A stretch of DNA of 64,000 nt from an uncultured bacterium (GCA_937996235.1 CALKVK010000015.1:29744-93743), one strand, 5' to 3'. Positions 30,584 through 60,552 are shown, numbered from the stretch's first letter. Notes: generated by a model not told the origin, from the sequence alone. Translations and numbers: made by a program.

Positions 30584-30871
30584 CTACGACTCGACGGCGA
30601 GGATGTCGGACTCGCGCAGGATCTTGAGCTCCTGCCCGCCGACCTTGACCTCGGTGCCCGAGTACTTGCCGTAGTAGACGACGGCGCCGACCGCCACCGC
30701 GGGCGGCATGCGCTCGCCGTCGTCGCGCTGCTTGCCGGGGCCGACGGCCACGATCTTGCCCTTGTTCGGCTTCTCCTTGGCGCTGTCGGGCAGGATCACG
30801 CCGCCCGTCGTGCGCTCCTCGGCGGAGAGCGGGCTCACGACCACACGATCATCGAGGGGCTTCAACTTCAC
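30584..30871 (-). CDS. groES: Co-chaperonin GroES
   Basis: GTG start with GGAGG 8 nt upstream. [46 protein letters not shown]...[11 protein letters not shown]. Confidence 0.9.
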
Positions 30872-30926
30872 GGCTCGTTCCTCCGGTGCGATTGCGGTTC
30901 CGCGCGCGTCTGCGGCGCGGCAGGTC

Positions 30927-32552
<1,626 letters not shown>

Positions 32553-38052: not shown

Positions 38053-39321
38053 TCAGCGGCCCGTGTCGGCGCCGCCCGACGGCTGCGCCGCCGAGGCGAG
38101 CGCGGCGCGCCCGTCCTTCTCGTACCACGCCTCCCAGGCCGCGACGTCCTCGCCGTGGTCCACGCCCGTCGCCTGCCGCAGCGAGCGGTAGAAGACGCGG
38201 CGCTCGACGGCCGTGAACTCCTCGTTGACGCCGAGCACGCGCGTGTCGAGCGAGACGCCCTCGCGGATCGTGCCGACGATCGGGTCGCCGATCTGCGCGG
38301 CCTGCGCGATCTCGACGTCGAAGTCGGAGATGTACGAGAGCTGGCGACCGATGAAGATCGAGTTGCGGCCCCCGGGGCCGCCGCTCGTCTTCAGCCGGCG
38401 GATGAGCCACTCGACCGACTGGCCGCCGCCGAACGCGCCGAGCGCCTCGGCGGCGTTGGTGCGCACGAGCGGCAGCGGGCTCCAGAGCGCACGCGCGAGC
38501 GGGCGCACCGTGTCCGGGTGACCGATCTCGCGCAGCGCCGCGACCGCGGCGTCGCGCACGCTCTTCTCGCGGTCCAACACGGCCGCGTGCAGCAGCGGTC
38601 GCAGCGCGTCGACGTCGCCCCAGCGCGCGAGCAGGCGCGCGGCGAGGCGGCGCTCCGCGGGCTCGCCCCGGCGCAGCGCGCGCAGTGCGGGACGGGCGAG
38701 GGCCTCCGCCGACATGCCGTCGAGCGCCTCGAGCGCGAACTTCTGGGCGCGCTCCGGTCCGGACGCCGCGCGATGGATGAGCTCGTCCGCGCGCTTCTCG
38801 TCGTCGCTCAGCTCGCGCACGGGCGTCGCGCGGCGGTCCGCGGCCTCCGCCTCCTCCTTCAGCACCCACGCGCCGTCGCGGCGCACGAAACCCTTCGCGG
38901 CGAGCAGCCGCTCGCCCGAGAGCCACGCGCCGTCGACCTGCTCCTGCGCGAGCAGCGCCCGCGCCCCGGTGTGCTCCGGATCCAGTTCGGCGACGCGCGC
39001 GGCGCACGCGCGCGACTCGTCGACGAGACCCGCGCGCTCCGCCCACAGCGCCAGCTCGTAGAGCGCGCCGGCGTCGTCCTTCGCGAGCGCGGCGCGGCGC
39101 TCCGCGAACTCGTCGGCCGGTGTGGTGTCGCGGCGCACGACGTCGACGTCGCGCCAGCGCAGCGACACGACGCCGTCGCCGGTCGTGACCTCGATGCGGT
39201 CGCCGCGGTCCGCGACGTCGCCCGCGACGACGTCGCCGGACTGCAGCCGGACGGTGTCCGCGGCAGCGCCGGCGGAGAGCGAGACGAGAATGGCGAGACA
39301 GGCCAGAGAGAGTGCACGCAC
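38053..39321 (-). CDS. Secreted HEAT-repeat (PBS-lyase type) protein that carries a short secretin-domain-derived segment
   Basis: GTG start with GGAGG 7 nt upstream. Signal peptide VRALSLACLAILVSLSAGAAA. The HEAT repeats are ALRALRRGEPAERRLAARLLARWGDVDALRPLLHAAVLDREKSVRDAAVAALREIGHPDTVRPLARAL. The segment SYISDFDVEIAQAAQIGDPIV is nearly identical at nucleotide level to part of secretin 1. The upstream 595 codons of the track ORF were rejected as antisense to the next gene. Confidence 0.65.
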   Translation of the reverse strand: MRALSLACLAILVSLSAGAAADTVRLQSGDVVAGDVADRGDRIEVTTGDGVVSLRWRDVDVVRRDTTPADEFAERRAALAKDDAGALYELALWAERAGLVDESRACAARVAELDPEHTGARALLAQEQVDGAWLSGERLLAAKGFVRRDGAWVLKEEAEAADRRATPVRELSDDEKRADELIHRAASGPERAQKFALEALDGMSAEALARPALRALRRGEPAERRLAARLLARWGDVDALRPLLHAAVLDREKSVRDAAVAALREIGHPDTVRPLARALWSPLPLVRTNAAEALGAFGGGQSVEWLIRRLKTSGGPGGRNSIFIGRQLSYISDFDVEIAQAAQIGDPIVGTIREGVSLDTRVLGVNEEFTAVERRVFYRSLRQATGVDHGEDVAAWEAWYEKDGRAALASAAQPSGGADTGR

Positions 39322-39438: not shown

Positions 39439-41100
39439 ATGCAGGACCTCGTAGACCGCCTCGTCCGCCGCCCGTGCCTCCAGCAGGCACGGCTCGCGGG
39501 CAACTCCGTTCGCAACGCGTACCACCGCAACCCCGACGACGTGATGGCGGGGCTGGCGTCGTGGAGCGCGCACCCGAGTCCGTTCGTGCGCATCGCCTCC
39601 GGCGTGGCGTACGGGGTGATCGGGGCCCGCGACCGCGACTCGCTCACGCGCATCCTGCCGTTCGTGGAGCGGCTCGCGAACGACGCCGACCCCGAGGTGC
39701 GCGAGCACGGCGCGGAGGGCGCCCTCGAGGAGCTCTGGCTGGCCCACGCCGACGCGCTCTGGACCGTGCTCGAGCAGTGGCTCCAGGGCAAGAACGACCG
39801 TGTCCGCGAGGTCGTGATCCGCACGGTCGCGCGCATCGCGGTCGGCGGGAAGATCTCGCGGCCGAGCCTGCTGCGGCGCTTCATCGAGCGCGGGCTCGAG
39901 CTCTACGACGCGCTCGTGCCCGGCGCGTCCCCCACCGTCGTGGCCACGCTCACGACCGCGGTGGACGGCATGGGCTGCCTCGCGCCCGAGGTGGTGACGC
40001 CGTTCGTGCGGCGCTGCGCCGAGCGCGACGACGCGTCGTCGCTCTCGCTCGTGCTCGACGTCGCGCGCACGCCGTTCGGCTCGCTGTGCGAGGGCGTCGA
40101 CTTCGAGGACGCGGGCATGCGCCTCGGCCGCATGCGCCACGCGGCGGAGACGGATGTCGCCGGACTCGTCAACCAGGGCGTCGGCGACGTGGAGCACCTC
40201 TCGCTCATGGGCACGTCGTTCCTCGTGCGGCAGATGAGCGACCACCTGCCCTGGACGTGGATCGCCGACCCGTACCGCGGCTGCCAGATGCGCTGCACGT
40301 TCTGCAACGCGCGCACCGGCGACGAGTGGAGCGGCGACTCGGCGGAGAAGTTCCGGCGCCGCGTGACCGTCGTGCAGAACGCGCCGCAGCTCGCGGCGAT
40401 GGAGCTGCGCAACGAGGAGCTCGCACCGCGCGTCGGCAACGTGCTCGGCATCGGCGTCACGTCCGACCCGTACCAGCCGGGCGAGGAGCGCCACCAGGTC
40501 ACGCGCGAGCTGCTGAAGGCGTGCCTCGAGAGCGGCCACCCGGTCGTCGTGCAGACGCGCCAGGCGCTGATCCTGCGCGACGTGGACCTGCTCGAGATGC
40601 TCGCGAAGCGCGACCTCGTGAACGTCTACGTCGCGCTGCAGGCCGCCGAGGACGACGTGCGCGCGCGCATGGAGCCCGACGGCGCAACGGTGGCGGAGCG
40701 CCTGCGCGTCATGCGCGTGCTCTCGAGCCGCGGCGTGCCCGTCGCGCTGCTGCTCTCGCCCGTGATGCCCGAGGTCACCGACGACCTCGAGCTGCTCGGG
40801 GACACGCTGCGCCGCGCGAAGGACGCGGGCGCGTCGTGGGTCACCGCGGAGGTGCTGAACCTGCACGGCTCCGCGCGCGCGAAGGTGCGCCTCTTCCTCG
40901 AGTCGCAGTCGCCGGCGATGGTGGACACCTACCGCGCGCTCTACACGGCCGGTGCACGGCCGGGCGATCCCGATCCGGCGTACGAGCGCTGCCTGCTCGA
41001 GGAGACGCTGCCCGAGCTCGCGCGGCAGCACGGTCTCGTCCAGACGGCGCGCATGCTGACGTCCGGACGCGACCCGCAGCTCTGCCTCGTGCGCCGCTGA
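39439..41100 (+). CDS. Fusion protein: N-terminal DNA-alkylation-repair (AlkD-like HEAT-like) domain plus a C-terminal radical SAM domain (SplB / DNA-photolyase-like)
   Basis: AYHRNPDDVMAGLASWSAHPSPFVRIASGVAYGV... is AlkD-like. IADPYRGCQMRCTFCNA is the CxxxCxxC radical SAM cluster motif, followed by TIM-barrel-like sequence. This is the real gene inside the 1171-aa track ORF. Confidence 0.75.
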   Translation: MQDLVDRLVRRPCLQQARLAGNSVRNAYHRNPDDVMAGLASWSAHPSPFVRIASGVAYGVIGARDRDSLTRILPFVERLANDADPEVREHGAEGALEELWLAHADALWTVLEQWLQGKNDRVREVVIRTVARIAVGGKISRPSLLRRFIERGLELYDALVPGASPTVVATLTTAVDGMGCLAPEVVTPFVRRCAERDDASSLSLVLDVARTPFGSLCEGVDFEDAGMRLGRMRHAAETDVAGLVNQGVGDVEHLSLMGTSFLVRQMSDHLPWTWIADPYRGCQMRCTFCNARTGDEWSGDSAEKFRRRVTVVQNAPQLAAMELRNEELAPRVGNVLGIGVTSDPYQPGEERHQVTRELLKACLESGHPVVVQTRQALILRDVDLLEMLAKRDLVNVYVALQAAEDDVRARMEPDGATVAERLRVMRVLSSRGVPVALLLSPVMPEVTDDLELLGDTLRRAKDAGASWVTAEVLNLHGSARAKVRLFLESQSPAMVDTYRALYTAGARPGDPDPAYERCLLEETLPELARQHGLVQTARMLTSGRDPQLCLVRR

Positions 41101-44076: not shown

Positions 44077-44154
44077 CGGGGCGTAGCTCAGCCTGGCTAG
44101 AGCGCCTGCTTTGGGAGCAGGAGGCCGGAGGTTCGAATCCTCTCGCCCCGACCA
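44077..44154 (+). tRNA. tRNA-Pro (anticodon TGG)
   Basis: CGGGGCGTAGCTCAGCCTGGCTAGAGCGC...anticodon loop CTTTGGGAG...GGTTCGAATCC...CGCCCCGACCA. This is a cloverleaf with an encoded CCA. Confidence 0.85.
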
Positions 44155-44186
44155 GAGCCCGCCCGCGCGGCCCGGCGGCGACGCAC

Positions 44187-44238
44187 ACACGGCACGCACG
44201 GCACGCACGGCACGCACGGCACGCACGGCACCGCACGC
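44187..44238. repeat. Microsatellite: 9-bp unit ACGGCACGC x ~5
   Basis: acggcacgc is repeated in tandem between tRNA-Pro and tRNA-Arg. It is followed by two imperfect ~24-bp direct repeats GCG(C/T)CTGCGACG(T/C)GCGCG(A/G)ACAC at ~44250..44300. Confidence 0.6.
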
Positions 44239-44304
44239 GCGCCGCACACGACGCGCCTGCGACGTGCGCGAACACGGCGCGTCTGCGACGCGCGCGGACA
44301 CAGC

Positions 44305-44381
44305 GCGCCGATAGCTCAGTTGGACAGAGCAGCGGATTTCTAATCCGCCGGTCGCAGGTTCGAGTCCTGCTCGGCGCGCCA
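44305..44381 (+). tRNA. tRNA-Arg (anticodon TCT)
   Basis: GCGCCGATAGCTCAGTTGGACAGAGCAGCGGATTTCTAATCCGC...GGTTCGAGTCCTGCTCGGCGCGCCA. Confidence 0.85.
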
Positions 44382-44457
44382 GCGCCGCGCGCGGCCCGGA
44401 CGGCGCATCGGCCGGACGAGACGCTGGCCGGACGACACGGTGGCCGGACGACACGGT

Positions 44458-44535
44458 GGTGGGTGTAGCTCAGTTGGTTAGAGCGCCTGACTGTGGCTCA
44501 GGAGGTCGCGGGTTCAAATCCCGTCACTCACCCCA
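44458..44535 (+). tRNA. tRNA-His (anticodon GTG) with a G-1
   Basis: G-GTGGGTGTAGCTCAGTTGGTTAGAGCGCCTGACTGTGGCTCAGG...GGTTCAAATCCCGTCACTCACCCCA. It is preceded by a 16-bp tandem duplication CCGGACGACACGGTGG x2. Confidence 0.85.
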
Positions 44536-44626
44536 TCCGGCAGCGTCCGGCAACCCGTCCGGCACCCGCTGCGGCAGCCCGTCGGGGCCGCGGTGACGGA
44601 CGCCACGCCGCTCCCGTCGCGGCAAC

Positions 44627-44655
44627 TTGCGGACGGCGCCGGGCCGCGCTATGAC
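44627..44655 (+). promoter_or_regulatory. Sigma-70-type promoter for tRNA-Lys
   Basis: TTGCGG - 17 bp - TATGAC, ending ~75 bp upstream of the tRNA 5' end. Confidence 0.4.
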
Positions 44656-44731
44656 TTGCCCTCCCGTGCCGGGCGCCGCTCGCGCGCGCCACGGCGGGGA
44701 CGTCGGCGGGCTCCCGCCGGCGGCGGAACGT

Positions 44732-44808
44732 GCCTCCTTAGCTCAGTTGGTTAGAGCAACGGATTCTTAATCCGTGGGTCCTAGGTTCGAGTCCTAGAGG
44801 GGGCACCA
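44732..44808 (+). tRNA. tRNA-Lys (anticodon CTT)
   Basis: GCCTCCTTAGCTCAGTTGGTTAGAGCAACGGATTCTTAATCCGT...GGTTCGAGTCCTAGAGGGGGCACCA. Confidence 0.85.
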
Positions 44809-48056: not shown

Positions 48057-50696
48057 ATGAAGACGCCTCGAGTTGCCGCAGCGCTTGCGCTCGCGGGCGC
48101 GGCGCTGTCTCTGGGGGCTTGCAAGAGCGGCGAGTTCCCCTTCTTCGGTAAGAAGAAGGCCGCCGCCCAGCCGGCCGCCAAGAAGGCGGACGACGCGCAG
48201 CAGCCCGCCGCGGCCTCGGCCACGGCCGTCGCCAAGCCTGCGTCGGACGGCGCGCCGTCGCTCGACGAGGTGCGCAAGGACCGGAGCGTCCGCGAGCAGG
48301 CCCGGCAGACGCTCGTCCAGAACTTCCTCAAGATGGGCGACGACGCCTTCGCGGCTTCGCGCTTCGAGGACGCCGAGTCGCACTACAACTCGGTGCTCGA
48401 CCTCGACCCGTCGAACGAGCACGCCCGCCGGCGCATGCAGCAGATCGGTGCGGCGCTCGGCAAGCGCGGCGTGACCGAGGGCGAGGCGATGGAGGGCGCC
48501 CGGGACCTGAAGACGGTCCAGGTGCAGCAGGCCAAGGCCGAGGTCGCCCGCCTGGTCGCCGAGGGCAAGGCGAAGGCGGCGGCCGGCGACATGGCCGGCG
48601 CGGTCACCCGGTACGAGCGCGCGCTCGTGATCGAGCAGCTCTACCCGCGCACGGTCGACTTCAGCCCGACGCCGGACGGACTGCGCGCCATGCTGCGCTC
48701 CGCACGCGAGTCGGCCGAGGCCTCGGCCGACGCCGCGCGCCGCAAGGTGCTCCAGGAGGCGCACGACCAGGCGCGCCTCGAGGCCGCGCGCCAGCGCGCC
48801 GCCCAGCAGTCGCGCGTCAACAACCTGCTCAAGCAGGCGAACGAGGCGATGGAGCGCCGCAACTACCAGCTCGCCGAGAACCTGTCGGCCGAGATCCTGA
48901 CCTCCGACCCGCTCAACGCGTCGGCGAAGCGCCTGCGCGAGATCGCCCGCGACGCCCGCATGGCGGACGCCGACGAGCGCCTCCAGGCGACGCTCCTGAA
49001 CGAGTGGAAGTACACGTTCGCCGACCTGCGCGAGGCGACGACGCCGCAGGTCGAGGAGTACACCTTCCCCGACACGTGGAACGAGGTGCAGGGGCTGCGC
49101 ACGGCGCCCTCGCTCTCGGTCTCCGCGGCCGGCGAGGAGGACGCGCGCTCGCGCGAGGTGCGCAACCGCCTCGCCGCGGCCCGCACGACGATCAGCTTCA
49201 CGGACGCGACGCTCGACGAGGCGGTCGAGTACCTCGGCCGCGTCTCGGGCACGAACATCGTCGTCATGAACGAGGCCCGCGAGGGCCGCTCCGACGACGA
49301 GCTCGCGATCACGCTCAAGCTCGACTCGGCCGAGTCGGTCGACAAGATCCTCGAGCTGATCGCGCAGTTCAAGGGCCTCGCCTGGACGGTCGAGAACGGC
49401 ATCGCCCAGATCACGACGCCCGAGGCCGCGCGCGGCAAGTCGATCGTCCAGATGTACGACATCAAGGACCTCGCGACGCCGATCGCGAACTTCCCCGGCG
49501 ACGAGATCAACCTCGACCCGCAGGGTGAGCACGAGGTCGAGGAGGAGGTCCCGGAGCCGGTCGCCGAGTTCACCGGCGACGCGATCAAGGACCTGATCGA
49601 GCAGAACGTCGACAAGACGGTCTGGGAGGAGGGCGGCTCGATCGACCTCCTCGAGCCGGGCACGCTGGTCGTCAAGGCCCCGGCCACGACGCACGCGAAG
49701 ATCCAGAGCCTGCTCGGCGGCCTGCGCGGCGCCGGCGGCCTCGAGGTCTCGATCGAGACGCGCTTCGTCACGGTCGAGGACAACTTCCTGCAGGAGGTCG
49801 GCGTCGACCTGCGCGGCCTGGGCGACCAGTCCGGCGGCATCGGCGTGGCCGGCAAGGGCGGTCTCGCCGGACCGGGCGGCATCTCGGTGCCCGTCACGTT
49901 CGACGACCTGTTCTTCGGCTCGGCCGGCAACCCGTCCGGCATCGGCACGGGCGGCGACACCGGCATCTTCTACAACCTCAACAGCGACGGCGACATCCGC
50001 GGTCGCTTCGAGAACCTGTTCGACGTCGCGCTGGGCCGCCAGGGCGTCCTGACGAACCTGGGCGGCTTCTCGTTCCAGGGCACGCTGATCGACGACACGC
50101 AGCTCGAGGTCATCCTCCGCGCCGTCGAGAAGAGCAGCCGGAACACGCTCGTCGTGGCGCCGCGCCTCACGGCCTACAACGGCCAGCGCGCGAACGTCAC
50201 GGTCCTGAACCAGATCTCGTACATCTCCGACTTCGACGTCGAGATCGCCCAGGCCGCGCAGATCGGCGACCCGATCGTGCAGACCCTGCGCGACGGCGTC
50301 ATCCTCGACCTGCGTCCGGTCGTCTCCTCGGACCGCCGCTTCATCACCATGGAGCTGCGCCCGACGATCGCGCTGCTGCAGCGCCCGATCGCGACCTTCC
50401 AGACCACGCTGGCGAACGGCCCGCCGGTCACGATCCAGCTCCCCGAGATCCAGATCCAGCGCGTCCGCACGACGGTCACCATGCCCGACAACGGCACGCT
50501 GCTCCTGGGCGGCATGAAGTTCTTCACCGAGCAGCGGCTGGACTCCAGCGTCCCGTGGCTCTCGGACATCCCGATCGTCAGCTTCTTCGTCTCGCGCAAG
50601 GCGACGTACCTCGAGAAGCGCAACCTGCTCGTGCTGATCCGCGCGCGCATCCTGCGTCCCGAGGAGAACGAGCCCGGCTCGACCGTCGGTCGCTGA
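48057..50696 (+). CDS. Lipoprotein secretin 1: TPR-like N-region plus STN-like domain plus GspD/PilQ-type secretin C-domain
   Basis: RBS AGGGAGGGG. Lipobox MKTPRVAAALALAGAALSLGAC. STN-like ISFTDATLDEAVEYLGRVSGTNIVV. Secretin motifs are RFVTVEDNFLQEVGVDL...VVAPRLTAYNGQRANVTV...LLLGGMKFFTEQRLDSSVPWLSDIPIVSFFVSRKATYLEKRNLLVLIRARIL. Confidence 0.8.
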   Translation: MKTPRVAAALALAGAALSLGACKSGEFPFFGKKKAAAQPAAKKADDAQQPAAASATAVAKPASDGAPSLDEVRKDRSVREQARQTLVQNFLKMGDDAFAASRFEDAESHYNSVLDLDPSNEHARRRMQQIGAALGKRGVTEGEAMEGARDLKTVQVQQAKAEVARLVAEGKAKAAAGDMAGAVTRYERALVIEQLYPRTVDFSPTPDGLRAMLRSARESAEASADAARRKVLQEAHDQARLEAARQRAAQQSRVNNLLKQANEAMERRNYQLAENLSAEILTSDPLNASAKRLREIARDARMADADERLQATLLNEWKYTFADLREATTPQVEEYTFPDTWNEVQGLRTAPSLSVSAAGEEDARSREVRNRLAAARTTISFTDATLDEAVEYLGRVSGTNIVVMNEAREGRSDDELAITLKLDSAESVDKILELIAQFKGLAWTVENGIAQITTPEAARGKSIVQMYDIKDLATPIANFPGDEINLDPQGEHEVEEEVPEPVAEFTGDAIKDLIEQNVDKTVWEEGGSIDLLEPGTLVVKAPATTHAKIQSLLGGLRGAGGLEVSIETRFVTVEDNFLQEVGVDLRGLGDQSGGIGVAGKGGLAGPGGISVPVTFDDLFFGSAGNPSGIGTGGDTGIFYNLNSDGDIRGRFENLFDVALGRQGVLTNLGGFSFQGTLIDDTQLEVILRAVEKSSRNTLVVAPRLTAYNGQRANVTVLNQISYISDFDVEIAQAAQIGDPIVQTLRDGVILDLRPVVSSDRRFITMELRPTIALLQRPIATFQTTLANGPPVTIQLPEIQIQRVRTTVTMPDNGTLLLGGMKFFTEQRLDSSVPWLSDIPIVSFFVSRKATYLEKRNLLVLIRARILRPEENEPGSTVGR

Positions 50697-50860: not shown

Positions 50861-51149
50861 CCATCTGCCTGTTCGTCCCCGCGCGGGGCCCGGACACGAC
50901 ACGAGAGGGCCCGCGCGCATGCAGTTCCCCACACTCCCGGAACTCCTCCTCCGCGCCCGCGCGTCACGCGCCCGCGGATTGGTGACGAATGTTGCGCCGC
51001 CTCCGGCGCATGGCTACGATCCGGCGCCGACTCGTCCGGACTCCCTCCGGGGACGCGGAACCGCGGCGTCCGAGCGGCGCGCGGCGTCGCTCGCCGGGCG
51101 CGCGGCGGCATCGTGGCGCGCCCGTCGCGCCCCATCGACCGAGGTGACC

Positions 51150-54134
51150 ATGCCCCGCCGTTCGCTCCTCCCGCGCTTCGTCCTCGTGGTCGCCGGGCTC
51201 GTCGCGGCCTGCGGCATCGCCCACGCGTACGAGGACGACTTCGAGTTCGCGCAGGCGCTGGCGGACCGCGGCTACACCGACCTCGCGGAGCAGCAGTTCC
51301 GGGCCCTGCTCTCGGACCCGAAGCGCAGCGCGAAGGAGAAGGCCGAGGGGCAGTACGGGCTCGCGATCATCAAGCGCATCGACGCGCTCGCAGCGGCACG
51401 CGAGACGAGCGAGCGGCGCCGCAGGCCGCTGAAGGAGGTCCTCGACCTCTTCCGCCAGGCCGACGCGGCGATCGCCTCGTTCATCGAGGCCAACGCCGCG
51501 CACCAGCGCGTGCTCGAGGCGAAGCTCGACCGCGCGAACCTGATCACCGACCGCGCCAACTACATCAACCTCGCGATCGAGCGCGGCTGGCTGCCGGCGG
51601 ACGTCTCCGAGGGCGATCTGCAGAAGGAGGTCGCGCAGGGCTACGACACGGCGATCTCGCTCCTGCAGGCCGTGCAGGACAAGGCGAAGAAGGACGTCGA
51701 GGGCAAGGCGCTCGGCACCGAGGAGTACGAGGACGCGCAGGAGCGCCTGGGCCTCGTGTGGCTGCACCGCATCGTGGCGCTGTACGGCAAGGGCGCCGCG
51801 CTGCCGCGCGGCGACACGAGCGGCGTCGCCGCGCTGAACGCGGCGATCTCCGAGGTCACCGACTACCTGTGGTCGTTCGACGGCACGCTGCGCGGCCTGT
51901 GGGCCTCGTACTACGGCGGGCTCGCGAACTGGAAGCTCGACCGGACGACGGACGCCGTGCGCGACATGGGCGACGTCACGGGGTACGTGAGCGAGTCCGA
52001 CGGCGTCCCGGCGGCGCGCGGCGTCTCGCTGCAGGCGTACGAGATGCTCGGCACGATCGCGCTCGACGCCGCCGACCGCAAGGGCGAGGAGGAGCTCGCG
52101 CGCACGGCGCTGGCGCGCCTCGACCGCCTGCCCGGACAGTGGCCGACGTACCTCGACGACGCCGCCGGGCAGCGCGCGGCGGTGTCGCGCGCACGTCTCC
52201 TCGCTCGTGCGCAGCGCACGCGCGAGGCGATCGAGCTGCTGCAGAACGTCCTGAAGAAGGCCGACGAGAAGCACACGGGCGTCGACGGCGCCGCGGGCGA
52301 GCTGCTCGCCGAGCTCCTCACGTCGACCGCGTCGGGCGGCGTCAAGCTCGACCCGGCGCTCCTGAACAGGATCGCGATCGCGAAGTGGCGCGACGGCGAC
52401 TACCCCGGTGCGATCCGGGCGTTCCAGGGCGTCATCGGTGCGTGCCGCACGCCCGAGCAGCGCGACGAGTTCGCGTGGGACGCGTGGGACTACATCGGCC
52501 GCTGCTACGGCATCGAGGAGCGCTGGTACGAGGCGTTCCTGGCGTTCGACGCCATCGAGAAGGCGTGGCAGGCGGACCAGAAGAGCGCGAAGCTCGCCGA
52601 GATCACGCAGGAGACCGGCTGGAACCGCGCGCAGGTCGTCGGCAAGCTCGGCATCGTCACGAAGGACGCGGCGGAGTCGGCGCGGCTCAAGGCGTGGGCG
52701 AAGGAGCTCCTCGACGAGTTCGCGCGCAACCACCCGGAGAGCCCGCGCAACCAGGGCGCGGAGCTGCAGGCCGCGACCGAGAAGCTGCGCGACGCGCAGG
52801 GCATGCGGCGCACGGGCGACTACGCCGGCGCCCTCGCCAAGTACGACGAGGCGATCGCCGCCCTCACCGCGACCGACAAGGGCAGCAGCCAGATCGACAA
52901 GGTCGAGGCGCTGATCGCGCAGGCGCGCCGCGAGACCGCGCGCTGCCTGCACGAGCAGAAGGACGACGCCGGCGCGGTCAAGGCGCTCGACGAGGCGCTG
53001 CGGCTGTCGCGCGCGTGGCTCGCGAAGCAGCGCCCCGCGGCCGAGGTCTCGACGGTGCGCCAGGCGCGCGCCGCCGGCGAGTCCATCGCGCTCACGAACA
53101 TCCTGACCGCACTGGCGGAGAAGGCCGACTACGTCGCGCAGGACCAGCGCAAGGCGGTCTTCGAGGAGCTCCTGAAGGAGATCGACGCCAAGGGCGCCGA
53201 CTTCCTGCGGGCCGTGAGCCGCGGCCAGACCCTGCTCGACCAGTGGCGCACGGAGGCGCTGATCGGCACGGACCAGGTCGAGAAGGCGGAGAAGCTGCTG
53301 CAGGACCTGCTCGCCAAGGACCCGGATCTGGCGAACGGCCCCTACCTCGCCGCGCTGGTCGCGCGCGCGCTCGAGACCGAGGCCAACACCTGGCTCGACA
53401 AGGGCGACGAGGGCCGCTACCGCACGCTCATGCTGCGCTCGGCGCGCCTGCGCGAGTACGCGATCACCAAGGCGGGAGACCCGAGCCCCGAGTCGTACCT
53501 CTCCCTCGCCTCCACCTTCCGGAAGTCGGGAGACCTCGAGAAGGCCGAGGAGTACTACCGCAAGGCCCAGGAGGCCTACGCGGGGCGCGGCGACGACGAG
53601 CGCGCCCGCGCCGTGCGGCTCGAGCTGATCAACCTGCTCGTGGACCAGCGCAAGTTCGAGGACGCGATCCGGCCGCTCGAGGTCGAGCTCGTCCCCGACC
53701 AGGGCGCGCGCCTCGCCGTGCTCGACCGCCTCGCGAAGGACGACAGCCTCACGAAGGAGGAGCTCGAGAAGCTCCTCGAGACGATGTCGCGCAACCGGCG
53801 CGTGCTCGACGTGCTGGCGCGCGCGTACGTCGAGGCGGCGCGCGACGACAAGGACCTGCTGCGCTCCGTCAACCTGACGAACGTGCTGCTGTACTGCCAG
53901 CCCGACGAGGACAAGTACGGTCCCGACTGGGTCGAGTACCAGCTCCGCCTCTCCACGGCCTACTTCAAGTACGGCGCGCTGAAGAACGACCCCGAGGCCT
54001 TCAAGAAGGTCGAGCGGCTGATCCAGACGCGGCTGGTCGTGCAGAACCTGCTCGACACGTGCAACCAGCTCGTGCCGGGCTCGAAGAAGAAGTTCGAGGA
54101 CCTGCTCGCCCGCGCGAAGAGCGGGGGCAGGTAG
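51150..54134 (+). CDS. Large (994 aa) all-helical TPR-like lipoprotein
   Basis: Signal plus lipobox MPRRSLLPRFVLVVAGLVAACG. There are many TPR/Sel1-like helical pairs, e.g. YAGALAKYDEAIAAL...LSLASTFRKSGDLEKAEEYYRKAQEAY. The R-rich 77 codons upstream in the track ORF were rejected. Confidence 0.65.
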   Translation: MPRRSLLPRFVLVVAGLVAACGIAHAYEDDFEFAQALADRGYTDLAEQQFRALLSDPKRSAKEKAEGQYGLAIIKRIDALAAARETSERRRRPLKEVLDLFRQADAAIASFIEANAAHQRVLEAKLDRANLITDRANYINLAIERGWLPADVSEGDLQKEVAQGYDTAISLLQAVQDKAKKDVEGKALGTEEYEDAQERLGLVWLHRIVALYGKGAALPRGDTSGVAALNAAISEVTDYLWSFDGTLRGLWASYYGGLANWKLDRTTDAVRDMGDVTGYVSESDGVPAARGVSLQAYEMLGTIALDAADRKGEEELARTALARLDRLPGQWPTYLDDAAGQRAAVSRARLLARAQRTREAIELLQNVLKKADEKHTGVDGAAGELLAELLTSTASGGVKLDPALLNRIAIAKWRDGDYPGAIRAFQGVIGACRTPEQRDEFAWDAWDYIGRCYGIEERWYEAFLAFDAIEKAWQADQKSAKLAEITQETGWNRAQVVGKLGIVTKDAAESARLKAWAKELLDEFARNHPESPRNQGAELQAATEKLRDAQGMRRTGDYAGALAKYDEAIAALTATDKGSSQIDKVEALIAQARRETARCLHEQKDDAGAVKALDEALRLSRAWLAKQRPAAEVSTVRQARAAGESIALTNILTALAEKADYVAQDQRKAVFEELLKEIDAKGADFLRAVSRGQTLLDQWRTEALIGTDQVEKAEKLLQDLLAKDPDLANGPYLAALVARALETEANTWLDKGDEGRYRTLMLRSARLREYAITKAGDPSPESYLSLASTFRKSGDLEKAEEYYRKAQEAYAGRGDDERARAVRLELINLLVDQRKFEDAIRPLEVELVPDQGARLAVLDRLAKDDSLTKEELEKLLETMSRNRRVLDVLARAYVEAARDDKDLLRSVNLTNVLLYCQPDEDKYGPDWVEYQLRLSTAYFKYGALKNDPEAFKKVERLIQTRLVVQNLLDTCNQLVPGSKKKFEDLLARAKSGGR

Positions 54135-54152
54135 CCCGTGAGGGACGCAACG

Positions 54153-55316
54153 ATGCCGACGACCCGGAACACGCTCATCCGCCCTGCCGCCGCCCTGGCG
54201 CTCGCCTTGGCGCTCGGCTCACCGGCGCGCAGCGCGGACGACCACGCGGCCGCCGCCGGTCCGCCGCCGGACACGATCGTGTACGAGGACGGCGGCGAGC
54301 AGAAGTCGCGCACCGACGTCGTCGTCGAGAGCGCCGACTGGGACGCCGTCGCCTACAAGGCCGGCGCGCGCTCCGCGTCGCAGCCGGGCAACACGGTCGT
54401 CGAGGTGCGCTGGGGCGACGCGCCCCCGGAGTACGCCGTCGGCTGGCGCGCCGTCGCAGGTCGCGACGGTGCCGCCGCCCGCGACGCGTTCAACGCGTGC
54501 CTCGCCGCGAAGGCGGCGGGAGTGGTCTCGCGCCCGTGGATCGACGAGTACGCGCAGATCGGCCTCGGCGAGGCGTGCCTCCTGCTCGCCGCCGCCGAGA
54601 AGGGCAAGACGTCGGCGGCCGTCGACGCGTTCACCGCGGCGCAGAAGGCGAACCCCAAGAGCCTGATGGCGGATCGCATCCTGAAGGGGCTGGCCGAGGC
54701 CGCGCTGATCGCGGGCAAGCCGGACGAGGCGCGCAAGCAGAGCGACGCGCTCCTCTCGGCGGGCCGCACCGCGCGGCGCCCGGAGTGGGAGATCGACGCC
54801 CTCTTCCTGCGCGCCGACATCGCGCGTCAGGCGAAGAACCCGGCCGAGGTCTCGCAGGCGTACGAGGAGGCGGCCCGCGTCGCGGAGCAGCAGGCGGGCG
54901 CCGCGCGCGCCCCGGCGGAGCGCCAGCGCTTCGAGCGCCTGCGGCGCCGCGCGGCGGCGTCCGCGGGCTGGGTGCTCGTGGACCAGGCGCTCGAGACCAA
55001 GGCCCCGGCCGACTTCGACCGGGCACGCGACTACTTCCAGGGCCTGCCGGGCAAGCTCGGACAGGTGCCGGAGGTCCTCTCGTCGGTCGAGAACGCGACG
55101 GGCGTGATCAAGCTCGCCGCCGGCGACACGTTCGGTGCGCTCCACCACTTCCAGACCACCGAGGTGCTGCACTTCGGCGTTCCGGACGAGGTGGCGCGGT
55201 CGCTGTGGTACCAGGCCGAGTGCTGGGACAAGCTCGGCGACACCGCACAGAGGGACGCGCGGCTGCGCGACCTTCGCAAGTACTATCCCAAGTCAGAGTG
55301 GGCCCGGAGGAAGTAG
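54153..55316 (+). CDS. Periplasmic TPR-repeat protein (387 aa)
   Basis: Signal MPTTRNTLIRPAAALALALALGSPARSA. It ends in TPR-like helices (...ARSLWYQAECWDKLGDTAQRDARLRDLRKYYPKSEW). Confidence 0.6.
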   Translation: MPTTRNTLIRPAAALALALALGSPARSADDHAAAAGPPPDTIVYEDGGEQKSRTDVVVESADWDAVAYKAGARSASQPGNTVVEVRWGDAPPEYAVGWRAVAGRDGAAARDAFNACLAAKAAGVVSRPWIDEYAQIGLGEACLLLAAAEKGKTSAAVDAFTAAQKANPKSLMADRILKGLAEAALIAGKPDEARKQSDALLSAGRTARRPEWEIDALFLRADIARQAKNPAEVSQAYEEAARVAEQQAGAARAPAERQRFERLRRRAAASAGWVLVDQALETKAPADFDRARDYFQGLPGKLGQVPEVLSSVENATGVIKLAAGDTFGALHHFQTTEVLHFGVPDEVARSLWYQAECWDKLGDTAQRDARLRDLRKYYPKSEWARRK

Positions 55317-55405
55317 GGTCTCGCGCACGCCGACGTGGGGTCCGTCGGCGGGCGGGATCGAGAGACGCCTCCGGAACGAGGGCTTACAGCCAAGGAGTGC
55401 CCTGC

Positions 55406-56140
55406 ATGCGCAAGTGGAAGAGCAACCTGACCGCCGGGCTGGCGGTGACGTTCATGACCGCGCTGCCGGCCGTGACCGCGTTCGCCCAGGACGCGGCCCC
55501 GGTGGTCGCGCCCGAGGACGAGGTGACCATCGGCAAGGTCATCGCGTGGGGCGGCGTCGTCGGCGGCGTGATCATCCTGATCTCGATCACGATGGTCGCG
55601 CTGGTCATCGAGCACTTCGTGTCGATCAAGCGCGACAAGATCGTGCCGCCCGAGATCATCGACGAGATCGAGGCGCTGTTCGAGGAGGAGGAGTACCAGG
55701 AGGCGCTCGAGCTCTGCGAGTCCGAGCCCAACTACCTCACGAACATGCTCGCGGCCGCGCTCCCGAAGATGAACGCCGGCTTCGACACGATGGAGGAGCA
55801 CCTCGACGAGGCGCACAGCCTCGAGGCGATGAAGCTCCACACCAAGATCAGCTACCTGTCGCTGATCGCGAACCTCGCCCCGATGCTCGGCCTGTACGGG
55901 ACGGTGCAGGGAATGGTGGGCGCGTTCAACAAGATCGTGCAGCTCGGACCGGCCGTGACGCCGAAGGACCTCGCCTCGGGCGTGCAGCAGGCGCTCATCA
56001 CGACGCTCTTCGGACTCGTCGTGGCGATCCCGGCGATCGGCTTCTTCTTCTACTTCCGTAACAAGGTCGTGCGGATCACCTACGAGTTCAAGGCGATCGG
56101 CGAGGACCTCATCGAGCGGTTCCGGCCGCAGCAGCGGTAA
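55406..56140 (+). CDS. exbB: MotA/TolQ/ExbB proton-channel protein with a cleavable N-terminal signal peptide
   Basis: RBS AAGGAG. MRKWKSNLTAGLAVTFMTALPAVTAFAQ signal. Three TMs plus the conserved LAPMLGLYGTVQGMVGAF...TTLFGLVVAIPAIGFFFYF motif. Confidence 0.85.
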   Translation: MRKWKSNLTAGLAVTFMTALPAVTAFAQDAAPVVAPEDEVTIGKVIAWGGVVGGVIILISITMVALVIEHFVSIKRDKIVPPEIIDEIEALFEEEEYQEALELCESEPNYLTNMLAAALPKMNAGFDTMEEHLDEAHSLEAMKLHTKISYLSLIANLAPMLGLYGTVQGMVGAFNKIVQLGPAVTPKDLASGVQQALITTLFGLVVAIPAIGFFFYFRNKVVRITYEFKAIGEDLIERFRPQQR

Positions 56141-56146
56141 CGCCAC

Positions 56147-56671
56147 ATGGCGAAGAAGCGCACGACTGCGGAGGCCGGGAAGGACGTCGAGGGCGGGGCC
56201 GAGATGGACATGACCCCGATGATCGACATCACCTTCCAGCTCATCGTCTTCTTCCTCGTCGCGAACGACCTGACCCGCAAGGAGGTCGAGGAGCTCAAGC
56301 TCCCGCAGGCGATCTACGGCAAGGAGGACAAGGCGACCGAGAAGGACCGCCGTGTGATCATCAACATCCTCGCCCCGGAGGACAGGGCGAACCCGCCTGA
56401 CATCCCCGAGGTGAAGGTCAAGGGCAAGCCCTACGGACTCGACGACCTCGAGCGTCTGATGCGCACCGAGGCCGACTCGAAGCGCGAGACGGACGGTCCG
56501 GGTGCGCCGAGTGCGATCTTCGTTCTGATCCGCGCCGACAAGGACACGCCGTGGCAGCACGTCCAGTACGTGATGCAGGTCTGCGCCGACCCGTCGATCC
56601 GCATCTACAAGATGCAGTTCGCGACGACGAAGCGTGACGACGGCAAGGCCACGTCGGCGAGCGGTGAATAG
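56147..56671 (+). CDS. exbD: ExbD/TolR family protein (paralog 1)
   Basis: MDMTPMIDITFQLIVFFLV TM region plus a periplasmic ExbD domain. Confidence 0.85.
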   Translation: MAKKRTTAEAGKDVEGGAEMDMTPMIDITFQLIVFFLVANDLTRKEVEELKLPQAIYGKEDKATEKDRRVIINILAPEDRANPPDIPEVKVKGKPYGLDDLERLMRTEADSKRETDGPGAPSAIFVLIRADKDTPWQHVQYVMQVCADPSIRIYKMQFATTKRDDGKATSASGE

Positions 56672-56680
56672 GAGCATCCC

Positions 56681-57199
56681 ATGAACGAAGAAGAGATGCC
56701 GAAGCCGAACATGACGCCGATGATCGACGTCGTGTTCCAGTTGCTGGTCTTCTTCCTCGTCTCGATGAAGTTCAAGACGCTGGACATGAAGATCGAGGCG
56801 TTCCTGCCGAAGGATCGCGGGCTTTCGCCCGAGATCGCGACGCTCGAGGAGAAGCCCAAGATCACCGCTGTGCTCAAGCGGAAGGTCGAGGGCGGAGGCC
56901 TCGAGAACAGCACGCGCATCCGTGTGCAGAACGCCACCCTCGGAACCGGCGACAAGCAGGAGACCTGGGATCTGCTCACGCAGCAGGCCAAGGCGCTCCT
57001 CGACCGCCACAAGGCGAACGGCGGCGCTGCGGAGGACGTGAAGGGCGAGGTCGATGCCTCGGCCCTCGTGCCCACGGGCGACGTCGTGCGTGCGGTGGAC
57101 GCGTTCCTCGCCGCCGGACTCCAGGACGTGACGTTCATCGGCACGCCCCCCCCGAACTCGAACCTGGCGAAGATCCGCAAGGCCGCGGGCACTCGCTGA
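56681..57199 (+). CDS. exbD: ExbD/TolR family protein (paralog 2)
   Basis: PNMTPMIDVVFQLLVFFLVSMKFKTLDMKIEAFLPK. Confidence 0.85.
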   Translation: MNEEEMPKPNMTPMIDVVFQLLVFFLVSMKFKTLDMKIEAFLPKDRGLSPEIATLEEKPKITAVLKRKVEGGGLENSTRIRVQNATLGTGDKQETWDLLTQQAKALLDRHKANGGAAEDVKGEVDASALVPTGDVVRAVDAFLAAGLQDVTFIGTPPPNSNLAKIRKAAGTR

Positions 57200-57389
57200 G
57201 GGTTCAGGACCCCGTATCGACCCCTTGCGCACACTCCGTGCCGCCCCGGCCCTGCCGGGGCGGCACACCGCGCTGCCTCCCCTGCCTGCCTGATCCCGAG
57301 TCGTGAGCGGGTGCTCGCGCGACGGCGCGACGCCCTCCCCCACCGCCTGTCCCGTCCCCGGCCGCGCGCGCGAGCGCAGGAGGCCGGAC

Positions 57390-57902
57390 GTGAGACGCCG
57401 ACGCGAAACCGACTCGAACCGCGACGCCACGGCGGCGTCGCCGGACCTGACGCCCCTCGTGGACGTCACCTTCCAGCTCCTCGTGTTCCTGCTCGTCGTG
57501 AACGACATCACGGCCCGGCAGAACGAGGAACTCGTGCTGCCGGAAGCGCAGCACGCGACCGAACTGCGCCCCGACGACGCGACGTGCACGGTCAACGTGC
57601 TCGCGCCCACGGACCCCGCGGACGACGCCGCGCCGCCGCGCGTGCGGGTGTCCGGGCGGACGCTCGACCTGCCGGATCTCGTCGACACGCTGCGCGCGTT
57701 CGCGGACCGCGAACGTGACGGCCGCGAGCCGCGCGCGCCGAGCGCGTCGGCCGTCCTGATCCGTGCCGACGCGGGCGCTCCGTGGCGCCACGTCCAGCTC
57801 GTCATGCAGGCCTGCGTCGACGACGACGTGCGCATCGTGCGCGTGCAGTTCGCGACGCGCGGCCCGGCCACCGAACCCAGCCGAGAGGAGGCACGCCGAT
57901 GA
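57390..57902 (+). CDS. exbD: ExbD/TolR family protein (paralog 3, divergent)
   Basis: GTG start with GGAGG 7 nt upstream. DLTPLVDVTFQLLVFLLVVNDI. The C-terminus RADAGAPWRHVQLVMQACVDDDVRIVRVQFAT parallels paralog 1. Confidence 0.7.
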   Translation: MRRRRETDSNRDATAASPDLTPLVDVTFQLLVFLLVVNDITARQNEELVLPEAQHATELRPDDATCTVNVLAPTDPADDAAPPRVRVSGRTLDLPDLVDTLRAFADRERDGREPRAPSASAVLIRADAGAPWRHVQLVMQACVDDDVRIVRVQFATRGPATEPSREEARR

Positions 57903-58354
57903 ACGACGACACACTCCCCCGCCCGAACATGACGCCGATGATCGACGTCGTCTTCCAGCTCCTGGTCTTCTTCCTCGTGTCGATGAAGTTCAAGACGCTC
58001 GACATGAAGATCGAGGCGCAGCTGCCGAAGCAGGTCGGGCTGAGCGACACGTTCGTCGATCCGCCGCCCGTCACACGCGTCTCGGCCCGGCTGGTCCGCA
58101 GCGGCCGGGCGACCGACCTGCGTCTCGACGGGCAGCGCCTCGGCACGGCCGACGATCCCGCGACGTGGGGGCGGCTCGCCGCATCGGCGCGCGGCATCCG
58201 CGCGCGGCACCTCGGCGCCGGTCTCGCGCCCGACGACCTCGTCGCGGAGGTCGACGGCAGCCGCGACGTCGCGACCGGCGACGTCGTGCACGCCATCGAC
58301 ACGCTGTTGGCAGCGGACATCGGGAACGTCCAGTTCCGCGGTGCCCGTCGGTGA
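57899..58354 (+). CDS. exbD: ExbD/TolR family protein (paralog 4)
   Basis: ATG overlapping the upstream stop (ATGA). PNMTPMIDVVFQLLVFFLVSMKFKTLDMKIEAQLPK. The 5' 96 nt are ~94% identical to paralog 2. Confidence 0.8.
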   Translation: MNDDTLPRPNMTPMIDVVFQLLVFFLVSMKFKTLDMKIEAQLPKQVGLSDTFVDPPPVTRVSARLVRSGRATDLRLDGQRLGTADDPATWGRLAASARGIRARHLGAGLAPDDLVAEVDGSRDVATGDVVHAIDTLLAADIGNVQFRGARR

Positions 58355-58391
58355 GAGGCACACCGCGTGCGAAGCACGCGGTGCGCCTCTC
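58353..58391 (+). terminator. Strong intrinsic terminator hairpin after the exbB-exbD x4 operon
   Basis: 18-bp stem GAGAGGCACACCGCGTGC / GCACGCGGTGCGCCTCTC (one mismatch) with a GAA loop. It overlaps the stop codon. Confidence 0.6.
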
Positions 58392-58668
58392 GCTCTAGTG
58401 GGGTGCACGCGGGCGTGCGTCACCTACGCAGGTGACGTCCGCCCCCTCGGTCGCACTGCCCGCGAGCACCATCCCGCCGGCACTGGCGCGTGCGGGGCAC
58501 GCGCGCGCCGGCGGGCGGCGGCCCTCTCGTTGCGAAGGGGACGGTCCTCGCGCAGGCTCGTGACGCAACGGGGAGTTGCGACGGGGACACTCCTGCCGCC
58601 GCGCGCTCGGGCGTCGGACGCGCCCCGCGATGACGATCGGGCGACGGAGCGCTGGTAGTGTCGCCGGG

Positions 58669-60552
58669 ATGCCGTCGCGTTCCGGTCCGCTGGTGGTCGT
58701 CGCGCTCTGCGTGGCGGGCGTCGTGGCGACCGCGCTCGCCTTCGTCTGGCGCGCGGAGCGACGCCCCACCGCCGTCGTCCTCATCAGCATCGACACGCTC
58801 CGCGCCGACCACGTGGGCGCCATCGCGGCGGCGACGGGCACCGACGGTGCTGCGGATCTGACGCCGCACCTCGATGCGCTCGCCGCCCGCGGCGCCGTCT
58901 TCACGCGGGCGTGGACGACCGCGCCCCTGACGGTCCCGGCGCACGCCAGCCTGCTCACGGGGCTCGTGCCGCCCGTGCACGGGCTGCGCACGAACTCCGG
59001 CGCGGCACGCATCCCGCCTGCCGAGACGCGGCGCTACCCGACGGTCGCCGAGGCGCTCCACGAGCAGGGCTGGCGCACCGGTGCGTTCGTCTCGGCGTCC
59101 GTCCTCCGCGCCGACCGCACGGGCCTCGCGGCCGGCTTCGACGTCTACGACGACGTCCCCGCCGCCGCCCCCGGGGCCCTGCACGACGCGGAGCGGCGCG
59201 CCGAGGAGACGGTCGCCGCGGCGCTCGCATGGCTCCGAGGCGGCTCCGGCAGCACGTTCCTGTGGGTGCACCTGTTCGACCCGCACGCTCCCTACGCCGC
59301 ACCGCAGCCCTGGGGCGCCGGCGCCGAGCACTCCGCGGACGCGACGGGGTACGCCGGCGAGGTCCGCTACGTCGATCATGCCGTCGGGCTCCTGCTCGAC
59401 GGACTCGCCGCCGCGGGCTACCGCAACGCCGCCGTCGTCGTCGTCGCGGACCACGGAGAAGCGCTCGGCGAGCACGGCGAGCCGACCCACGGCTTCCTGC
59501 TCCACGAGGCGACGCTGCACGTGCCGCTCCTCGTCGCTGCGCCCGGACTCGTGGCCGCAGGCCTCGTCCGCGAGGACCCGGTCTCGATCGCGGACGTCGC
59601 GCCGACGCTCCTCGGCTTCGCCGACGTGCCGGTGCCTCCGGGGCTCGGCGGGCGGCCGCTGTTCGCCGCCGGCGCACCGGGCGAGCGCCGGGCGCCCTAC
59701 GCCGAGTCGCTCTACGGCTGGGAGACCGCGCGCTGGGCGCAGGTGTTCGCGCTCCGCGACGGCGACCGCAAGCTGGTGGACGCGGGCCCGCACACGCTCG
59801 AGGCCGACCTCGCCCGCGACCCGCGCGAGCTCGCCGTCACCAGGCGCGCGGTCCCGTCGCCCGGGACCCCGCCCGCGGACGCGACGGCGGCCGCCGCGGA
59901 GCGCGACGTCGTCGAGTCCCTCCGGTCGGTCGCCGCCCTGCCGCCCTTGGACGCCCCGTCGGCCGCCGCAGCGCCGGAACTCGCGGGCGGCTCGTACTGG
60001 GCACCCGCCGGCACGGGAGCGACGACGATCCTCTCCCGCGCCGAGAACGCCGCCCTGCCGAGCCCCTACGACCGGATGGACGTCGTCCGCGAGCTCGACG
60101 CCGCCCGCGCGCTCCTCGCCGGGGGCGACCCCGCCCGCGCCGTGACCGCGTTCGCGGCGGTCGTCGCGCTCGACCCGGCGAACCCGCAGGCCCGCCAGTG
60201 GCTCGCACGGGCCCGGCTCGGAGCCGGCGACCCGCTCGGCGCGGCGGCCGACTTCCGGGCGGCGTTCGGGCTGGGCTGGCAGGACGCAGCCTGCGTCGCG
60301 AAGGCGCTGCAGGCCTCGGCGGCCGGCGTCGAGTCCGACCCCGAGGAGGCCGGGCGTGCCCTGAAGTTCCTGGAGGAGGCGCGCGGGAAGGGCCTCCGGA
60401 GCGACGGTCCCGTGTACGTGTTCGAGGCGCTGCTCCTGGCCGCGGCCGGACGGACGGACGCCGCCCGCCGCGCCCTCGCGGCGGCGCGCCGCGAGCCCCC
60501 GACGCCCTGGCTCGAGAAGGCCGTCCGGGAGCTCGGCGAGGCGCTGCGATGA
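58669..60552 (+). CDS. Membrane-anchored sulfatase/alkaline-phosphatase-superfamily protein with a C-terminal TPR domain
   Basis: TM LVVVALCVAGVVATALAFVW. VVLISIDTLRADHVG ... PAHASLLTG ... HLFDPHAPY ... VVVVADHGEALGEHG are sulfatase/LTA-synthase-type metal-site motifs. TPR-like helices follow from ~aa 480. In-frame alternative starts exist at 58576 and 58630. Confidence 0.7.
   Translation: MPSRSGPLVVVALCVAGVVATALAFVWRAERRPTAVVLISIDTLRADHVGAIAAATGTDGAADLTPHLDALAARGAVFTRAWTTAPLTVPAHASLLTGLVPPVHGLRTNSGAARIPPAETRRYPTVAEALHEQGWRTGAFVSASVLRADRTGLAAGFDVYDDVPAAAPGALHDAERRAEETVAAALAWLRGGSGSTFLWVHLFDPHAPYAAPQPWGAGAEHSADATGYAGEVRYVDHAVGLLLDGLAAAGYRNAAVVVVADHGEALGEHGEPTHGFLLHEATLHVPLLVAAPGLVAAGLVREDPVSIADVAPTLLGFADVPVPPGLGGRPLFAAGAPGERRAPYAESLYGWETARWAQVFALRDGDRKLVDAGPHTLEADLARDPRELAVTRRAVPSPGTPPADATAAAAERDVVESLRSVAALPPLDAPSAAAAPELAGGSYWAPAGTGATTILSRAENAALPSPYDRMDVVRELDAARALLAGGDPARAVTAFAAVVALDPANPQARQWLARARLGAGDPLGAAADFRAAFGLGWQDAACVAKALQASAAGVESDPEEAGRALKFLEEARGKGLRSDGPVYVFEALLLAAAGRTDAARRALAAARREPPTPWLEKAVRELGEALR

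Follow-up and report, generated by a model that had tools for sequence, protein, structure and literature searches.

How does a short stretch of a gene for a helical-repeat protein come to be almost identical to part of a gene for a secretin? This question is raised by a 64,000-nucleotide (nt) stretch of DNA from an uncultured bacterium (GCA_937996235.1, CALKVK010000015.1:29744-93743), here called the window, in which 64 nt of a gene for a HEAT-repeat protein are nearly repeated in the gene for a secretin (secretin 1). Type II and type III secretion, type IV pili and filamentous phage export all have a secretin as their gate in the outer membrane. How these gates are shut, opened and assembled is only partly understood, and the present setting is Planctomycetota, a phylum whose envelope machinery is poorly characterised. 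An earlier note on this DNA had attributed the match to a recent gene conversion or patch recombination that made a new chimera. Our analysis points instead to an old module, shared by the HEAT protein with the gate of the secretin and very likely kept in step with it by several causes acting together.

Results

The shared segment is part of a longer region of homology

The HEAT-repeat protein gene (38053..39321, minus strand; 422 amino acids, identical to P0001) was delineated with a frame plot of the G+C content at third codon positions (GC3), an exact database match and its orthologues. Its product matches Pfam HEAT_2 (PF13646) with 54.4 bits against a cut-off of 27.7, and it is thus a HEAT-repeat protein. 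The secretin 1 gene (48057..50696, plus strand; 879 amino acids, identical to P0065) encodes a TPR-like region at the N-terminus and, at the C-terminus, a Secretin domain (residues 689-867). The domain scores 86.6 bits in Pfam against a cut-off of 27.5, and the gene, for which orthologues were also found, belongs to the secretin family.

The reverse complement of 38274-38337, in the HEAT gene, is identical to 50217-50280, in secretin 1, at 61 of 64 positions. Direct comparison thus bears out the match given in the earlier note, and a register shifted by three bases (38277-38340 and 50214-50277) gives 62 of 64. These two sites are the only ones in the window with three mismatches or fewer. No such match occurred in 100 dinucleotide-preserving shuffles of the sequence, and none is expected by chance. 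Both copies are in frame and encode the peptide SYISDFDVEIAQAAQIGDPIV, which is residues 329-349 of the HEAT protein. A mobile repeat element was rejected as an explanation because the segment is confined to in-frame positions of these genes; an explanation at the RNA level was rejected because each copy is sense-oriented in its own mRNA.

The similarity extends well beyond 64 nt. In a repeat search of the window, the inverted repeat reaches 105 nt at 86% identity (38240-38344 and 50210-50314). BLASTP aligns the HEAT protein to secretin 1 with 35 identities in 60 residues (58%, E=2e-16), and hhalign, run with a profile of the HEAT family against one of the secretin orthologues, aligns 82 columns with a probability of 98.9% (E=1.7e-17). 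The latter alignment pairs residues 302-383 of the HEAT protein (38173..38418, minus strand) with residues 682-776 of secretin 1 (50100..50384, plus strand), with a 12-residue deletion in the HEAT protein. In the secretin these residues comprise the last helix before the barrel, the first strands, Gate 1 and the next strand. Therefore, the claim that the HEAT protein has no other similarity to secretins is wrong. A second, more divergent secretin lies at the end of the window and its gene continues past it. The translated Gate 1 region of this secretin (FVQDFDVEVAQTAFIADPIIG; 63795..63894, plus strand) forms an inverted repeat with the same HEAT segment, at 75% over 100 nt.

The shared segment corresponds to the Gate 1 loop

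When the C-terminal 210 residues of secretin 1 were compared with the PDB using phmmer, the best match was f1 pIV (7ofh; E=1.2e-11), and other matches were RcpA, GspD, PilQ and BfpB. In pIV, G267 and G297 are the hinges of Gate 1, a loop that reaches the centre of the pore and seals the channel (PMC8563730). The alignment places G267 on the residue just before NQISYIS and G297 on the Gly of LRDG, and the shared segment falls on pIV residues ~271-291. Because both hinge positions flank it, the 64-nt segment is, as judged from this alignment, the part of secretin 1 that encodes the Gate 1 loop (50217..50280, plus strand).

The two genes differ at the first of these hinges. At the position of pIV G267 (50190-50215 in secretin 1, 38340-38365 in the HEAT gene), secretin 1 has Leu (TVLNQ) and the HEAT copy has Gly (FIGRQ) in the clade of the window. 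A secretin lacking the canonical hinge glycine may gate differently.

In the HEAT protein, an N-terminal signal-peptide-like helix is followed by a small beta domain, TPR-like helices, HEAT repeats (residues 173-311), a beta-hairpin module and two C-terminal helices. We built an AlphaFold2 model with 56 family members as input, which has a mean predicted local distance difference test score (pLDDT) of 89 and a predicted template modelling score of 0.63. The module is predicted to form a long beta-hairpin of two strands (319-332 and 348-361) with a short helix between them (336-341), at pLDDT 67-80. The Gate-1-like core occupies the end of the first strand, the hairpin tip with the short helix and the start of the second strand. 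The tip in this model, DFDVEIAQAAQIGDP, has its counterpart in the flexible middle of Gate 1 in pIV. A Foldseek search of the PDB with the whole model returned alphaRep/HEAT proteins and the CpcE/F lyase as best matches and was uninformative on the hairpin.

The HEAT segment is thus homologous to Gate 1 and the inner barrel, as judged by BLASTP, hhalign and the mapping through pIV. The homology is limited to the 82 columns and does not make up the full secretin domain, which consists of the outer barrel, inner barrel, Gate 1 as well as Gate 2. Though its module is Gate-1-like, the HEAT protein is not a secretin, since the outer barrel, Gate 2 and the S domain are absent. None of the 63 members of the HEAT family has a lipobox-like motif in its first 45 residues. 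From this and the signal-peptide-like N-terminus we infer that the protein is exported through Sec.

The module is ancient

Among 5.8 billion proteins searched, 63 orthologues of the HEAT protein were identified, all from metagenome-assembled genomes of Planctomycetota where a source was named. In every one of them the module is at the same position, with conserved flanks that are specific to the HEAT family (GGPGGRN.IFVG upstream and VERR downstream). Alignments of 23 and of 56 members identify SYIxDFDVEIAQAxQIGDPIVGTIREGVxLD as the most conserved block of the family, invariant or nearly so down to 34% overall identity among the orthologues. A motif scan of the GTDB species representatives gave 80 loci, nearly all labelled Planctomycetota, and among these are HEAT-type proteins of far greater divergence that keep this layout. 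A profile search with the full HEAT alignment against 1.84 billion representatives was dominated by long generic HEAT-repeat proteins and gave no usable estimate of family size, with about two dozen single-stretch, near-full-length matches of ~380-460 amino acids among the top 150.

On the evidence of these comparisons, the module is ancient and not a recent insertion. The earlier note had itself named an ancient conserved motif in the orthologues as the outcome that would count against a transferred segment, and this is what the orthologues show. It had also named an assembly artefact, that is, a collapsed or chimeric repeat. No finding speaks for it, and it is excluded because more than 20 independent assemblies, among them a long-read genome with contigs of 1.8 and 2.0 Mb, have this architecture in frame. 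In addition, the repeat is far shorter than the final k-mers of assemblers and both genes are intact, so that the chance of an artefact is negligible.

Two further Planctomycetota loci have two Gate-1-like motifs in one polypeptide with no obvious HEAT region. In L091 (motifs near 1542 and upstream) these are YMEDYDVEVAS... and YVADFDVEIAEKSFIGNP..., and in L092 (motif near 1506 and downstream) they are LVADFDVEIAQFAFIADP... and VRDVDVEVASNS.... These proteins may be further architectures built from the same module.

The near-identity in this genome does not require a recent exchange

The window has a G+C content of 74%, with a GC3 of ~0.95 in coding regions. With codon usage estimated from those genes of the window that were called with confidence, two encodings of the 21-residue peptide were drawn independently. 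About 6.5 differences in 63 nt are expected between them (~57/63 matches), and two, both synonymous, are observed (61/63 matches; P(<=2)=0.03). The longest exact run between the two copies, 34 nt, is at the 96th percentile, and 3.6% of the HEAT/secretin pairs taken across genomes reach it. These two values are what speaks for a recent event that copied the 64 nt from secretin 1 into an unrelated HEAT gene of this genome, together with the match itself and the fact that conversion is demonstrably active elsewhere in the family.

Other comparisons speak against such an event. The HEAT copy of the window shares an exact run of 44 nt with the secretin of a different genome. Over a 90-nt core, its identity is 94.4% with the HEAT copy of another species and 88.9% with its own secretin. 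The homology reaches 82 amino acids, and the module with its HEAT-specific flanks is found in all orthologues. A recent origin of the 64 nt in this genome is therefore unlikely, and the idea of a new chimera is largely refuted. The identity is mostly explained by conservation of the peptide together with codon bias, and thus a recent exchange is not required here. The last conversion in this genome, if there was any, is probably not recent. The inference of recency from nucleotide identity is not supported for this pair, which provides a caution on method: where GC3 is ~0.95, a short coding segment that is nearly the same in two genes is weak evidence that it was transferred recently.

The two genes evolve in concert across genomes

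Conversion between the two genes is seen clearly when other members of the family are examined. By matching contigs and assemblies we collected 23 genomes that have both genes, and the 506 pairs of a HEAT copy and a secretin from different genomes served as the control. One site of the loop, which is A, F or L, agrees between HEAT protein and secretin in 23/23 genomes, and a neighbouring A/S site agrees in 20/23. Rare residues are found in both genes of the same genome, A>L and S>A among them. Both genes of JAKLKS and of CAYJMF have F>Y (DYD) with L-S and P-I-I. PIVSQL is common to both genes of CAZWGT; SYIA, L-A and PIIQQL to both of CAZKTF; QESYIS and VIRDG to both of locus L002; and LDVK to both of JAIOPE. 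In CBDFJG both genes have A>F, even though they are on different contigs.

The same holds for the pairs taken together. In a 30-column core, the mean number of amino-acid differences is 4.96 within and 8.49 between genomes, and none of 20,000 permutations gave a value as low. The fraction of synonymous differences is likewise smaller within genomes (0.277 vs 0.336 between genomes; p=2e-4). Exact runs of at least 50 nt occur in five of the 23 within-genome pairs (79, 66, 59, 52 and 50 nt) and in none of the 506 control pairs, where the maximum is 48; again, 0/20,000 permutations matched this. In each of CAZWGT, CAZKTF and L002, the secretin of the genome is closer to the HEAT core than the HEAT core of any other genome is, and these genomes have identical tracts of ~79-97 nt with abrupt ends. 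Thus, the family as a whole has an excess of similarity within genomes that includes synonymous sites, and in these three genomes the segments cluster by genome with sharp tract ends. This indicates, as far as sequence comparison can, episodic gene conversion in short tracts between the HEAT gene and the secretin. The part of the earlier note that invoked gene conversion between these genes is upheld for other genomes of the family, while the part that placed a recent, chimera-making event in this genome is not.

Some genomes (G2_PLA2 and JAJRPF) have identical peptides with 9-12 synonymous differences, and conversion is therefore episodic and not continuous. In some genomes 11-13 of 20 codons for identical residues differ between the copies and the HEAT peptide core is still conserved. 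Such conservation despite saturated synonymous sites shows that purifying selection acts on the HEAT copy in its own right. As to direction, the secretin-type Q is found in 8/61 and the secretin-type D in 5/61 HEAT copies, and the HEAT-type G or E in 0/21 secretin 1 orthologues. Conversion appears to run mainly from secretin to HEAT gene.

Could the likeness arise with no exchange of DNA, from an extremely constrained peptide and extreme codon bias alone? These two factors cover most of the identity in the window, and the genomes with identical peptides and many synonymous differences fit such an account. It fails on the identical rare substitutions in both genes of one genome, among which A>F needs two nucleotide changes. 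It also fails on the exact tracts of 50-79 nt, which include four-fold sites and have sharp edges, and on the HEAT cores that cluster with their own secretin. For the family this explanation is refuted; for the genome of the window alone it is a possible one, and overall we regard it as improbable.

Gene neighbourhood

From the HEAT gene onwards, the order of genes is a divergent radical-SAM gene, Fur, an unnamed gene, PurD and then a variable stretch. This is followed by a large protein without a Pfam family, secretin 1, two TPR proteins, ExbB, the ExbD paralogues, a sulfatase-TPR protein and secretin 2. The radical SAM protein (39439..41100, plus strand; 553 amino acids, identified with Pfam) has a HEAT-like N-terminus, and its gene is adjacent to the HEAT gene in every orthologous locus retrieved. 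The interval between HEAT gene and secretin also holds four tRNA genes (Pro-TGG, Arg-TCT, His-GTG and Lys-CTT; 44077-44808, plus strand), between purD and an EamA gene. The protein without a Pfam family has 600-880 amino acids and is encoded directly upstream of secretin 1 in all orthologous loci (for example, L002 8091-9887); in the window it lies at ~45900-47806 on the plus strand, where crude gene calls give two open reading frames. It is an uncharacterised but conserved component of the secretin cluster. Downstream of secretin 1 is a conserved cluster (51144..60552, plus strand), assigned with Pfam and found in the same order in orthologous loci, with two TPR proteins, ExbB, four ExbD paralogues and the sulfatase-TPR protein; secretin 2 is next.

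In six of the seven genomes for which neighbourhoods were retrieved, the HEAT gene is ~9-12 kb from the secretin, with housekeeping genes between them. The conserved neighbourhood is consistent with a link between the HEAT protein and the secretin. The two copies of the 64-nt segment are inverted relative to each other, and could in principle form the site of a programmed inversion of the 11.9-kb interval, which would make it a phase-variation switch. This is very improbable. All syntenic loci agree in gene order and orientation, an inversion would truncate the secretin barrel, and no invertase gene is adjacent.

In the one genome that has the two genes on separate contigs, the synteny breaks are occupied by an IS1595-type transposase and a phage-type integrase (L007 4197-5162 and L008 1-837). 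The rare A>F variant of the loop is still common to both genes in this genome.

Two other repeats in the window were noted. The ExbD paralogues at 56696-57199 and 57899-58354, two of the four, share a block of 119 nt at 90% identity (56705-56823 and 57923-58041). The block encodes almost identical N-terminal 34 amino acids (PNMTPMIDVVFQLLVFFLVSMKFKTLDMKIEA), and the rest of the two proteins is ~40% identical. This is a second mosaic block of identity between paralogues in the window, and may be another case of conversion or constraint. At 28862-32552 (minus strand) is a groEL-groES-groEL arrangement, in which the Cpn60 genes are 74-83% identical in nucleotide sequence over long stretches and the Cpn10 gene is between them.

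Discussion

We suggest that a fragment of a secretin of about 82 amino acids, comprising an inner-barrel strand, Gate 1 and the next strand, was fused in an ancestor onto the C-terminus of a Sec-exported HEAT-repeat protein, and that a large group of Planctomycetota has retained this architecture throughout. The near-identity of the two copies would then have three causes. The first is that the same peptide is under very strong purifying selection in the two genes. The second is the extreme codon bias, which leaves few synonymous choices. The third is episodic conversion of tracts of ~80-100 nt, probably mainly from secretin to HEAT gene, which would keep the two loops in step in each lineage. 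This evolutionary account is very likely to be correct. When the proposed action of the HEAT protein on the secretin is included, the explanation as a whole is still the probable one.

Several observations weigh against this explanation. Pfam Secretin (PF00263) does not match the HEAT protein, either as a whole at E<=0.01 or with its C-terminal 125 amino acids at E<=10, and the confidence of the modelled hairpin is only moderate. The HEAT gene and the secretin are not in one operon, and in one genome they are on different multi-megabase contigs. The pair in the window exceeds the expectation from codon bias only weakly, and its HEAT core groups with that of another species and not with its own secretin. 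The permutation tests ignore phylogenetic non-independence, and their p-values are optimistic because shared ancestry is not taken into account. Lastly, gene-specific residues persist in or beside the tracts, namely G (HEAT) or Q (secretin) following PIV and E (HEAT) or D (secretin) ahead of the second hinge Gly, and in locus L002 matched codons flank unmatched ones. Conversion of a single tract is thus insufficient and selection must also act.

Selection could act in a more specific way. If the HEAT hairpin had to match Gate 1 through mutual contact or a common partner, sameness itself would be selected and conversion would only be the route to it. Even at saturation of synonymous sites, rare variants almost always match between the two genes, as in CBDFJG with its shared F and 8/27 synonymous differences, and the HEAT copy has its own strong purifying selection. 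In secretins, the Gate 1 loops of adjacent subunits meet at the centre of the pore and form hydrogen bonds with Gate 2 of the neighbour (PMC8563730). On the other hand, the same pattern is expected under a neutral model in which conversion lags behind synonymous turnover and outpaces the very rare amino-acid changes in the core. Physical co-evolution, moreover, usually gives compensatory and not identical changes. We regard selection for sameness as a possible alternative, less probable than the ancestral fusion with its three causes of identity.

What could the module do? The HEAT protein might present a protruding, Gate-1-like beta-hairpin in the periplasm and act with it on the cognate secretin. 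The hairpin could serve as an assembly chaperone, pairing through its beta-strands with Gate 2 or with inner-barrel strands of subunits, be they assembled or not. Alternatively, it could modulate or plug the gate. In both cases the HEAT solenoid would bind a further partner. That the protein engages its cognate secretin would be the most economical reading of its function, and the joint change of the two copies suggests that it works with the gate. A role of the module as plug or assembly partner of the secretin, as put forward in the earlier note, is plausible from the sequences, and we hold a function of the HEAT protein as a partner of the secretin to be possible, with some doubt. A more specific proposal, and a more speculative one, is that the HEAT protein is a dedicated mimic of the gate. 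As a soluble periplasmic partner, it would insert its hairpin among the gate elements of the secretin or pair with them, and so control assembly or opening, and selection for an exact match would fix the recurrent conversions. If true, this would be a previously undescribed form of secretin regulation, in which molecular self-mimicry is kept in step by DNA exchange between unrelated genes. No account of a protein of this kind turned up in literature searches on HEAT repeats in combination with secretin and Planctomycetes, on secretin and gene conversion, and on ExbD together with secretin in Planctomycetes. The detached gate loop of a conserved exported protein, in step with the loop of the channel, provides a testable handle on secretin gating.

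Comparison with known systems

The closest relative of the module is Gate 1 of the secretins themselves, such as f1 pIV, GspD/PulD, PilQ and InvG. As in these, a long beta-hairpin with a tip is predicted in the HEAT protein, and the HEAT copy retains Gly at the first and at the second hinge position. The difference is that its loop is detached from the double barrel and fused to a soluble helical-repeat protein. In addition, RRFITMELRP is a beta-strand in the secretin and is predicted to be helical in the HEAT protein.

Only by analogy does the HEAT protein also resemble the pilotins and other helical-repeat assembly factors of secretins (PilF/PilW/Tgl; PulS/OutS): it has helical repeats and is predicted to be exported, and its gene lies near that of a secretin in six of the seven neighbourhoods retrieved. 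On this analogy, a role in secretin assembly or stability would be reasonable. PilF/PilW/Tgl are TPR lipoproteins, whereas the lipobox is missing from the 63 HEAT family members, and we saw no sequence similarity to known pilotins. Known pilotins bind the C-terminal S domain and are not known to carry a copy of a secretin segment. A separate exported protein that sits in, or regulates, the lumen of an outer-membrane channel has a precedent in LptE, the plug of the LptD barrel, though a plug role for the HEAT protein is purely hypothetical. LptE is a separate protein that is not derived from LptD or its barrel, and it has no sequence mimicry.

For the concerted evolution, the counterparts are bacterial paralogues that evolve in concert by gene conversion, such as tufA/tufB in Salmonella and babA/babB in Helicobacter. 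The likeness is in the greater similarity within than between genomes, including synonymous sites, in the short and sharply bounded tracts, and in the clustering by genome. Those pairs are whole-gene paralogues, whereas here only ~80-100 nt are exchanged, between two genes that are otherwise unrelated. Thus, the HEAT gene and the secretin provide a natural example of concerted evolution limited to the short segment that they have in common.

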